DNA of 64,000 bases. Source: Nitrospirota bacterium. GTDB taxonomy: Bacteria > Nitrospirota > Thermodesulfovibrionia > Thermodesulfovibrionales > Dissulfurispiraceae. The stretch is taken from assembly GCA_963710375.1 (NCBI GenBank), contig CAVPZX010000008.1:1-64000 (forward strand), given 5' to 3'. Positions 33,226 through 35,914 of this stretch are shown here, piece by piece (position 1 is the first letter of the stretch; each line of letters starts with the position of its first letter). A program made the translations under genes and the position numbers. The notes under the pieces are model-generated. The model saw only the letters and a list, made by a program, of their open reading frames with translations. It made no database searches and was not told the origin of the DNA.

Positions 33226-33236
33226 AAAAATATTGA

Positions 33237-33416
33237 GGGCTCGCGAATAAATAACTTGCACATTGATGCATCTCAGATTTAGGCCATCTTTGCCAGATCC
33301 TCAGTCGCAAAATCCTCAACGTAGCTATGCTACGCCTGCGGTTTTGCTCAGTCGGATCATCCAAATCTGACCCAAATCTGTGCGCCTGAATGCACAAGTT
33401 ATTTATTCGAGAGCCC
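33237..33416. mobile_element. MITE family A copy 4 (180 bp)
   Basis: Full-length copy between convergent genes. Flanks are TGA/TAC (imperfect). Confidence 0.9.
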
Positions 33417-34649
33417 TACGGAGAGATCAAAGGTCCTGAGAGCGTCTTCATAAATGCCTCGATCTGTAAAAGTTCTTCATCAGTCAGGTCCTGATGCTCC
33501 ACTTGAGTGCTTGAACTCATCCTGTAGAAAAACATTACATCTTCCAGGGACTTGGATTGCCCCGCATGCATATAGGGTGGCCGCTCTGCAACATTTCGTA
33601 ACGTTGGGGTCTTGAATGCTCCTATATATTTGCTTTTGTCCTTGTCTATGAACCTCAGTTCGCTGCATTGATCAGGCTTGGCATCGCTGTATTTACCGAG
33701 ACAGTTGAACTCATCAGAAAGCACCTTGCCAATGCCCTCTGCCCTGCCCTTATCCTTTCCATTGTCCAGCCCAATGTCGTGAAACTCGCCGTTCGTAAAA
33801 AGCGGACCCATGTGGCAGGTGATACATTTGGCTTTTCCGATGAATAGTCGCAATCCTTCGACTGCATCGCGGCCCATTGCCTTGTCCGCAGCCGCCTGGT
33901 CGTTCCTGAGTACTGCATCGGCATACAGGTCGAACGGCGCGGGAGAAGGCACTATCCTCCTCACATAAGCTTCGATCGCCTTGCCGATATTCGCGTAGAC
34001 CCTGTTGACAGCGTACCGGTCAGCCGGTTTCATCGCCTTCCAGAGCTTGAGCGCAACTGGATTACCTGTTCCAGGGCTTGCCTTCGGAGGACAGACTCTT
34101 GTGGGTTATCTTCGGGAGACTGCCGAATATCTCAGTGTATTCGTTCTTGTATTTGTCGATTATCAGGTGTGCGCAGTAAGAACGGGTAATGCCATGCTCA
34201 GGAACGCTCTCGATCGGTCCAATGGCCTGAGACCATAAGCTGTCCTTCCTGCCATCCCAGAAGAACCAGGACTGATAGGCTACACCGATGAGCGGCATGG
34301 TCCTTCGAGTATTGGTGCCCATGCCCCTGGCAAGGGCAAATCTGTCAGTGAATGAATATTCCGGAATATGACAGGTGGCGCATGATATCTTCCCGTTGGC
34401 GCTGAAACTTTTATCGAAGAAAAGCTTCTTCCCAAATTCTATCGCCTTGGGGTTATCTGCATAAGCGTTCGACGGGTCAGGGGGCAGCGGCGGAAGCGAG
34501 GCAAGAGAGAGGGAGCGTATCACATTCTTGTCTTCCTCGCTCCACTGATGAATCTGTTGGAGGTCCTTGTCCGCGGCCATGCCAGTGCTGCCTGCGCCCA
34601 TAATCGTAAAAGAAATGAGGACAAGCGTCAGAAAAGTAAACCGGGCCAT
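33416..34649 (-). CDS. Diheme cytochrome c peroxidase superfamily enzyme (MauG/MbnH-like), split by an apparent frameshift near 34097
   Basis: CATCH and FFWDGRK in the 5' ORF. CITCH and FKTPTLRNVAERPPYMHAG in the 3' ORF. The alternative frame VCPPKASPGTGNPVALKLWKAMKP bridges the two. Confidence 0.85.
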
Positions 34650-34679
34650 GATAACCTCCAACTCCGCTTTTGCATAAAA

Positions 34680-35459
34680 TTACTTCAACATGAGGTTGAA
34701 GGAAGTATTGTCGGTTTTTCCGCCAGCGTTGACACTGACGTTGACCACCCACCATCCGGACATACTGAACTTCATTCCTTCCACAAGGTAGGTACCATCG
34801 CCGTAGTTCTTTGTGACCTTGGGCTGTGTAGGCATACCATGACCGTGTTCCGGCATGGTCCCGCTAACTGTAATCTTCGCATCCTTGACCGGTTTGCCGT
34901 CAGCAGTCTCAACCTTGAGTTTCCAGGACTGGAGCTTGTTAACCGGCACAGTCTGGAGATCACTTGTGTATGTTACCTTGAATGTTCCTGCCTTCGAAAC
35001 CATCGTCTTTGCGTAAGCAGCATCAGAGGTCGGCTTTACCATAGCGCTTGCGGAGCAGTGCTTGCATTTGCAGTCTTTACCACAATTGCAGCCACCCTTG
35101 CCGTCACTCTTGCAGTTGCACTTTCCCTTGCCTGTTTTGCAATGTTCGCACTTGCAGTCCTTGCCGCACTTGCAGCCCTTGCCGTCACTCATACAATTAC
35201 AGCCTTTGTCCCCTGCTTTGCAGTCGCAGTTTCCCTTGCTGCACTTTCCGCACTTGCAATCTTTCCCGCACTGGCAACCATTTCCGTTTTTACCGTTCTT
35301 GCAGTTGCAATCACCCTTGTCTGTCGTGCAGTTAGCGCATTTACAATCCTTACCGCAGTCGCATTTTGCGGCGGCATCGACCGTTCCTATTATCGGCGCA
35401 CATGTCATGGACCCGATAAAGAGAACGGCAAGAAGAATGACTCCAAATTTTTTCAGCAT
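34680..35459 (-). CDS. Secreted metallothionein-like Cys-rich repeat protein fused to a YtkA/FixH-like domain
   Basis: Signal peptide, 4x CxCGKDCKCxxC, C-terminal MPEHGHGM and FSMSGWW motifs. Confidence 0.8.
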   Translation of the reverse strand: MLKKFGVILLAVLFIGSMTCAPIIGTVDAAAKCDCGKDCKCANCTTDKGDCNCKNGKNGNGCQCGKDCKCGKCSKGNCDCKAGDKGCNCMSDGKGCKCGKDCKCEHCKTGKGKCNCKSDGKGGCNCGKDCKCKHCSASAMVKPTSDAAYAKTMVSKAGTFKVTYTSDLQTVPVNKLQSWKLKVETADGKPVKDAKITVSGTMPEHGHGMPTQPKVTKNYGDGTYLVEGMKFSMSGWWVVNVSVNAGGKTDNTSFNLMLK

Positions 35460-35914
35460 AATTACCCCCCTTTAATTATGATTGTATAATTGTAAAACAG
35501 GACACCTTATTTATAGGTAGAAGTATACTCTACAACAACAAATATTGCAATAAACTGGGTGTATGCAAGTCAGACATTACGGGGTTGTTTTTCTGCAGGG
35601 GGTGCCCAAGAAGTCGGCAGACTTATTGAGGAAGAGGTGAGCGCCGGGATTAGATCTGTCTCAGCCCATCCCGGCGTTAGCTATATTGACGGTTATCGCA
35701 ATATCTGACGCAAAGGTGCCTGAAGGTGTGATTATATCTTATATGTAATTTATTTCCCAGGAAATTGGAATTAATCCACATACATGCTGTTTAATAACCC
35801 TCGGAAATCCCAATAAACCAAGAAGATAACACATTGTCTTGCCTAGTATAATTCTTGCATGATAGTCAGTTGAGGATAAGACATGCGACCACAGAAAAAT
35901 AGGAGGGAATACTG

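Follow-up and report, generated by a model that had tools for sequence, protein, structure and literature searches.

Among the closest described systems, in which an enzyme of the bCcP/MauG superfamily acts on a partner protein, MbnH makes kynurenine in MbnP according to a review (PMC11951088), and a kynurenine-copper partner has been suggested for SACCP/MopE and CorB/CorA (PMC3621798, PMC3912023). MauG-type enzymes, which oxidise partner proteins, are described as poor dye peroxidases (PMC11892367). In the stretch of DNA analysed here, the 64,000 nucleotides (nt) at positions 1 to 64,000 of contig CAVPZX010000008.1 from a Nitrospirota bacterium (assembly GCA_963710375.1), hereafter the window, the minus strand carries a two-gene unit of a related kind, with a Cys-rich YtkA protein encoded first and a diheme enzyme second. 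The enzyme-YtkA pairing is conserved across many phyla and is a real, widespread and apparently undescribed variant of the diheme enzyme plus copper partner theme, which we tentatively read as an MbnH/MbnP-like copper module whose partner has a new fold. In agreement with the original prediction, made from the sequence of this locus, literature searches returned no description of the pairing, although network figures or supplements on MbnH/MbnP may already show the cluster.

The pairing rests on adjacency, co-occurrence and fusion. Fifty-six enzyme loci were examined after removal of five duplicates and two fragment matches, and setting aside five distant loci (L071-L075, at most 305 bits, no YtkA) and one with the gene at a contig edge left 50 that could be assessed. 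A YtkA gene adjoins the enzyme gene in 44 of these 50 loci (41 as open reading frames (ORFs), three by six-frame search), the loci having been found with patterns from the query and kin among them not being independent. The YtkA subtype beside the enzyme is the His-type, MPxHxH…MxGxW, with the match at L076 being weak and divergently oriented. The loci come from Nitrospirota, Rokubacteria, Pseudomonadota, Chloroflexota, Aminicenantes, Planctomycetota, Bdellovibrionota and Gemmatimonadota, and cultured, tractable hosts of the pair include Polaromonas naphthalenivorans CJ2, Cereibacter azotoformans and Gemmatirosa kalamazoonensis. Among 61 related genomes, members of the enzyme clade (E<1e-60) and His-type YtkA proteins (E<1e-20) are both present in the same 12 and both absent from the remaining 49; as ten of the 12 positive genomes had fed the YtkA profile, it is the absences that carry the information. 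Across the phylum, both genes stand out in the same three of 151 genomes. The YtkA domain is moreover part of the same chain as the enzyme in 29 of 150 best representatives, one further enzyme of this set being fused to PCuAC (P0141) and one to an NHL propeller. The pair, first noticed at this single locus, is thus borne out by the survey of synteny, presence and fusion.

Recurrent neighbours are limited to close relatives or to two or three loci, and the pair looks self-sufficient because no third gene is conserved across phyla; the genes that flank the unit differ even within the genus. Genes for NHL-repeat and LVIVD propellers, the products of which are possible clients, adjoin or are fused with the partner or the enzyme in L058, L067, L069, L070 and P0179, mostly in a Planctomycete-type branch.

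Searches and folding of the enzyme were performed with an intact orthologue (L023, the same as L035), which is 84% identical to the window enzyme over 344 columns. PF03150 in the N-terminal half (98.6 bits versus a cut-off of 25.6), two CxxCH motifs and the peroxidase fold place the enzyme in the bCcP/MauG superfamily. The orthologue model (predicted local distance difference test, pLDDT, 88) matches MacA, MauG and bCcP at E about 1e-12, with the MauG and bCcP folds matching about equally. The Tyr of a VxFFY motif aligns on residue 294 of MauG (query 340-388 on 3L4M 255-303, segments of equal length); in canonical peroxidases (1IQC) the same column holds a Met, presumably the haem ligand. Tyr is found at this second-haem ligand position in 38 of 38 in one count and in 138 of the 150 best representatives of the enzyme relatives, the set behind all residue counts given here for the enzyme, and a Tyr/His-ligated second haem, as in the MauG-type mechanistic class, is predicted from the alignment. 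The inter-haem Trp (139/150), the distal Gln (147/150), Pro (146/150) and Glu (148/150) are all present in the window protein. A clade-typical Cys pair, Cys316/Cys328, is kept in 111 and 110 of 150, and additional Trp residues of the clade (in L035 numbering W132, 136/150; W143, 143/149; W207, 129/136) could relay oxidising equivalents. Arg116 occupies the position of the Ca-ligand Asn (RRTMP for RNxP), and the loss of the Ca site was ruled out as a hallmark of the clade, with Arg in just 21 of 150 relatives, Asn in 82 and His in 38.

Within the superfamily, the enzyme represents a clade separate from MauG, MbnH and the canonical peroxidases. The NCBIfam score of L023 for MauG (TIGR03791) is 144.9 versus a cut-off of 443.85 bits, that for MbnH (TIGR04039) 134.3 versus 362.85 bits and that for the His-Xaa-Ser enzyme model 100 versus 340. 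In a quick IQ-TREE tree of 38 chosen rows, 27 of them from the enzyme clade and 11 references (one annotated MauG, two MbnH-family, one mtoX-linked, two canonical-type and five other; BthA, SACCP and CorB left out), a branch with a support of 100 in the Shimodaira-Hasegawa-like approximate likelihood ratio test separates the clade from all references, and the approximately unbiased (AU) test rejects one clade of the window enzyme with the two MbnH-family members (p-AU 0.000345). With Tyr in the Met column of the Met/His-ligated high-potential haem, and with this branch, the enzyme is no canonical bCcP, and the expectation that it would not group with Met-ligated peroxidases held; of its assignment as a MauG/MbnH-type enzyme the Tyr position stood, whereas it is neither MbnH nor MauG proper. 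An AtlasESM search with the enzyme returned just automatically named peroxidase clusters, and no mau genes are present among the neighbours scanned. MauG, and the SCO1 plus MauG-like pair of methanethiol oxidase clusters, resemble the unit in fold, in ligand position and in an adjacent or fused gene of copper-chaperone type (PMC5739008), while here no mau or mtoX gene is adjacent, there is no conserved client, the clade is separate and Arg replaces the Ca-ligand Asn. BthA, which is Tyr-ligated and also without Ca, nevertheless turns over peroxide catalytically (PMC6405878). The same genome codes for a second MauG-like paralogue (C3:112737-113816) in which Phe occupies the Met/Tyr ligand position (EVIGFF) and FSDGR replaces FWDGR; its relatives in the same order (L013-L020) likewise carry Phe or Leu at this position and group in a clade of their own.

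PF13115 covers residues 167-241 of the partner (58 bits, cut-off 25.9). The partner model is all-beta (pLDDT 96) and finds its best structural match in CrdA (Z 14.5, root-mean-square deviation 1.9 over 100 residues), followed by the copper proteins FetP/P19 (Z up to 9.7, values also reached by unrelated Ig folds). The MPEHGH loop aligns with the Met-rich loop of CrdA, through which CrdA is reported to bind copper (PMC9182242), and YtkA domains are reported to contribute to the assembly of CuA in B. subtilis (PMC13344008). The partner shares PF13115 and the MP...MxGxW frame with Bacillus subtilis YtkA/CtaK and Helicobacter pylori CrdA (PDB 9LL2/9LL4), both copper-linked in these sources; unlike them, the partner possesses a His-rich MPxHxH instead of a Met-rich loop, the additional Trp179, and a diheme enzyme rather than Sco or a resistance-nodulation-division (RND) pump beside it.

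The partner carries MPEHGHGM and SGWW, and M202, H205, H207 and M233, its candidate metal ligands, are conserved in 62, 61, 62 and 61, respectively, of 64 enzyme-linked YtkA domains (35 adjacent and 29 fused). Judging from strand order, these four residues, the subtype-specific W179 and the fold-wide W237 would come together at the same end of the sandwich. The Met/His site is predicted to bind copper. The WW motif had at first been proposed as the substrate, a proposal that had to be given up: the variable W236 is Trp in 28 of 64 domains (3 of 29 among the fusions), and W237, although Trp in 64 of 64, is a fold-wide residue independent of the enzyme, which is probably structural because MxGxW is common to the partner, CrdA and the enzyme-free YtkA genes of the same genome. 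W179, in turn, is Trp in 53 of the 64 enzyme-linked domains, the 11 exceptions belonging mostly to the Planctomycete-type branch, and by eye its position is non-Trp in the enzyme-free YtkA genes of the same genome and in the N-terminal domains of tandem YtkA proteins. The enzyme-linked subtype is hence MPxHxH with W179, whereas enzyme-free copies display Met-rich loops without that Trp, which leaves W179 as the foremost candidate for modification among the Trp residues. In the same genome, two tandem CrdA-like YtkA genes of the Met-rich type (G000 C5:38521-39596), located directly upstream of a CusCBA-type efflux operon named by eye, resemble the H. pylori crdA arrangement.

Compared with MbnH/MbnP (TIGR04039/TIGR04052; PDB 6E1C, 7L6G), the unit has in common an adjacent exported diheme enzyme and partner, the Tyr ligand position, the inter-haem Trp and His/Met ligand candidates in the partner. 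It differs in that the partner is YtkA/CrdA-like, lacks WxW, is in many cases fused to the enzyme and may bear a Cys arm; MbnP (PF20243) had no match in the same genome (control positive in 1 of 14), and hhalign gave a probability of 0.5% for the partner versus MbnP. With SACCP/MopE and CorB/CorA of methanotrophs (PMC3912023) the unit shares the two-gene layout, a diheme enzyme plus an exported copper protein and a His-rich site, while the partner fold here is YtkA/CrdA-like and the enzymes are likened by description only.

The N-terminal part of the partner is an arm with 28 Cys in 103 residues (27%), without any aromatic residue, Leu, Ile or Val, built of four copies of a CxCGKDCxCxxC...CxC unit with about seven Cys each. 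With its Cys in CxC/CxxC motifs, its richness in Lys and Gly and its lack of aromatics, the arm has the composition of a metallothionein; unlike metallothioneins, it is predicted to be exported, is fused to a folded domain, consists of seven-Cys repeats and stays below the cut-offs of all Pfam metallothionein families (best Metallothio_PEC, 14.2 versus 31.8 bits, E 0.057). An AtlasESM search with the arm gave no usable match. Of 100 motif-bearing homologues, 48 lack Cys altogether in the arm region, 47 carry at least seven, and in 36 of these 47 arms the number is a multiple of seven; sizes range from seven to over 40 Cys, or from one to about six repeats. The Cys arm is restricted to Nitrospirota among the loci examined, a second Met-type YtkA domain or His-rich linkers occupying the same place in other lineages. 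The Cys array envisaged as part of the system is therefore present but is an optional module, which is best read as an optional soft-metal store, metal storage being plausible from its composition. Free-standing metallothionein-like ORFs of 50 and 57 amino acids (aa) lie no more than about 0.5 kb from the unit in L078 and L072. A third copy in genome G037 (L102:4041-5809) consists of a Cys-arm YtkA gene, followed by a truncated enzyme fragment and a gene for an exported Cys-rich protein of 126 aa.

The reading that we favour, tentatively and at somewhat below even confidence, is that of an MbnH/MbnP-like copper module in which the enzyme oxidises its YtkA partner. The diheme enzyme would use hydrogen peroxide through a MauG-type high-valent haem state, with bis-Fe(IV) chemistry proposed by analogy, and would oxidise a residue of the partner, most likely Trp179 and perhaps to kynurenine; the oxidised residue would likely complete the Met/His copper site, as MbnH does for MbnP, and in this lineage the seven-Cys repeat arm would add soft-metal storage. 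Along with it, direct contact of enzyme and partner, the choice of residue to be modified and the loading of the arm with metal are presumed. Partner oxidation is favoured by the precedent of MbnH/MbnP, SACCP/MopE and CorB/CorA together with the poor dye peroxidase activity of MauG-type enzymes. Several observations weigh against this view. Six of the 50 enzyme loci are without an adjacent partner, in G049 the enzyme and the partner sit on different contigs, and most loci have no copper gene nearby. W179 is absent in 11 of 64 domains and its position is a core hydrophobic residue in other YtkA domains, so that its role may be structural; even without kynurenine, four ordinary ligands are available; and the partner has no WxW motif and is unlike MbnP. 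As to the enzyme, it has Arg where MauG has the Ca-binding Asn, Tyr-ligated BthA still turns over peroxide catalytically (PMC6405878), and the enzyme-PCuAC fusion suggests that copper delivery matters, rather than a particular Trp.

Alternatively, the partner may be a redox partner: Cu(I) from the arm, or from a Met- or His-rich add-on in other lineages, would reach the M-H-H-M site and be oxidised there by the enzyme with H2O2, which would clear Cu(I) as well as peroxide independently of O2. This possibility, unlikely as it appears, is the strongest of the alternatives. The one-to-one fusions in 29 of 150 representatives, the exchange of one metal-binding add-on for another (Cys arm, second Met-type YtkA domain or PCuAC), the metallothionein-like genes beside two loci and the copper binding of the fold neighbours FetP/P19 are consistent with it, as is the peroxide turnover by Tyr-ligated BthA (PMC6405878); furthermore, no PF07732 multicopper oxidase was found in the 98.8%-complete genome, while the control search was positive in 6 of 14 genomes. 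MauG-type enzymes are, on the other hand, described as generally poor catalytic peroxidases (PMC11892367), a canonical Met-ligated peroxidase gene is already present in the genome (C4:273357-274403), and L032 and L040 look like copper-uptake islands rather than detoxification. More doubtful still would be a peroxide-driven, oxygen-independent periplasmic copper machine that leads from a Cu(I)-collecting metallothionein arm to the YtkA site and to catalytic bis-Fe(IV) metal oxidation, possibly after kynurenine installation.

Less probable again is that the enzyme is a peroxide scavenger and the partner a Zn/Cd/Ag sink or a thiol buffer with a disulfide arm, co-located because both respond to metal or oxidative stress. 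This would agree with the six enzyme loci without partner, two of which (L048, L049) lie among arsenic-resistance genes, with an arm below every Pfam metallothionein cut-off and with possible periplasmic oxidation of an exported Cys array; the fusions and the matching presence and absence in 61 genomes argue for direct coupling instead, and the odd Cys number per repeat would fit metal-thiolate clusters better than full disulfide pairing. The least likely alternative is a maturation kit for a third protein, in which YtkA would deliver copper like CtaK or Sco and the enzyme would build a Trp-derived cofactor on an unlinked client, as proposed for SCO1 and MauG with methanethiol oxidase: SCO1-MauG pairs and fusions in mtoX clusters (PMC5739008), the support of CuA assembly by CtaK/YtkA (PMC13344008), the haem-copper oxidase operons that L045 and L076 adjoin, the adjoining or fused NHL/LVIVD propeller genes and COX1 and COX2 in the same genome speak for it, but searches of the same genome found neither SBP56 nor MbnP, the flanking genes vary even within the genus and there is no client gene conserved across phyla.

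To our knowledge, many enzymes of the bCcP/MauG superfamily are without a known substrate. Here, a whole enzyme clade comes with a partner identified by adjacency, co-occurrence and fusion, which makes the oxidation target testable with two small genes. If partner oxidation is true, kynurenine or another oxidised residue in the YtkA/CrdA fold would be an independent copper-binding solution beside MbnP and MopE/CorA, while catalytic Cu(I) oxidation, if true, would extend the bCcP/MauG superfamily by a new activity. The copper machine, if it exists, would give the YtkA fold its first enzymatic partner and low-oxygen bacteria an alternative to multicopper oxidases. The exported arm with its seven to over 40 Cys, finally, offers a natural series for metal-thiolate modules outside the cytoplasm.

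On the level of the locus (Table 1), two exported proteins encoded 30 nt apart had been predicted with their motifs, all of which were located in the sequence; the enzyme ATG at 34649 stands behind GGAGG, exactly 30 nt downstream of the partner stop. A lipoprotein at Cys20 of the partner was considered unlikely, as Cys is mostly absent there in homologues. In the window, the enzyme gene is split into ORFs 34062-34661 and 33416-34033. The frameshift check covered contigs of four of 15 listed public runs from two studies, one run being maybe the source sample; the base at 34095 is left out in all four runs, at full depth of the covering contig, and both genes are otherwise identical to the window in the listed long contigs. 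In relatives, the reading frames of the 14 best orthologue matches are open over 408-493 aa, the nearest relatives being labelled Nitrospirota, and the enzyme read through with X at the break is a stop-free protein of 410 aa. The frameshift is an assembly error, because the extra base is missing in four of four runs and the orthologue frames are open, which also rules out a dead gene or a programmed frameshift. Canonical clustering, an unconserved pair and a real frameshift had each been named as grounds to abandon the original prediction, and none of the three applies.

Table 1. Features of the two-gene unit in the window, with predicted elements marked as such.
Feature	Position	Strand	Remarks
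Partner ORF	34680-35459	-	259 aa; Sec-type leader, 28-Cys arm and YtkA domain
Predicted Sec signal peptide of partner	35373..35459	-	residues 1 to about 29, ends VDA-AA; cleavage site by eye
Metallothionein-like arm	35055..35363	-	residues 33-135; 28 Cys, 23 Lys, 19 Gly
His-type YtkA/FixH Ig-like domain	34680..35021	-	residues 147-259; PF13115, alignment, model
MPEHGH motif, M202-H207	34839..34856	-	predicted copper site together with M233
W179 of partner	34923..34925	-	best candidate for the modified Trp, from conservation
Sigma-70-like promoter candidate	35522..35550	-	TTGCAA-17-TATACT; weak
Diheme bCcP/MauG-superfamily enzyme, predicted exported	33416..34649	-	about 410 aa; two CxxCH, Trp131, Glu151, Tyr375, Cys316/Cys328, Arg116
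CATCH haem motif of enzyme	34368-34382	-	sequence
FFWDGR inter-haem Trp of enzyme	34257-34259	-	sequence
CITCH haem motif of enzyme	33812-33826	-	sequence
EDVMFFY Tyr of enzyme	33524-33526	-	sequence
Extra base splitting the enzyme gene	34095..34095	.	assembly error; base missing in 4/4 runs compared

The promoter search upstream of the partner gave two sites versus 3.6 in shuffles, which is not above chance, and terminator matches at the unit are at chance level only. TTGC(A/T)AT-like words occur upstream in three of four close relatives aligned; no conserved operator was seen in five aligned upstream regions.

By raw occurrence, metal-related neighbours in some loci include CopD, NosL, a TonB receptor, oxidase operons and a CsoR/RcnR-family repressor, and they point both ways, to uptake in L032 and L040 and to resistance in L048, L049 and L078. 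In L048 and L049, the enzyme gene without YtkA lies among ArsR, Acr3-type, ArsP, thioredoxin and DsbD genes. At L040:3166-3918, L032:6513-7313 and L037:121-924, near the unit, a gene codes for an exported protein of about 250 aa that is extremely rich in Met and His and has no Pfam match, with CopD-like, NosL or TonB genes close by.

A composite mobile unit bounded by the flanking repeats was considered and is not supported, as the end repeats belong to different families, none of which was found in the relatives' loci. The element resembling a miniature inverted-repeat transposable element (MITE) at window 33236-33417 (about 182 bp, terminal inverted repeats AGGGCTC.CGAATAAATAACTTG...) abuts the enzyme stop codon, has 26 near-full genome copies and was not found in the relatives' loci searched; two more dispersed repeat families upstream of the operon, at window 35564-35598 and 35741-35860, have about 9 and 23 other genome copies, respectively. 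Distant members of the enzyme clade (L073:3735-4592, L074:3777-4694) adjoin genes for an MbnB/TglH/ChrH (DUF692) enzyme and a DUF2063 protein, possibly a cluster for a ribosomally synthesised and post-translationally modified peptide with a diheme enzyme.

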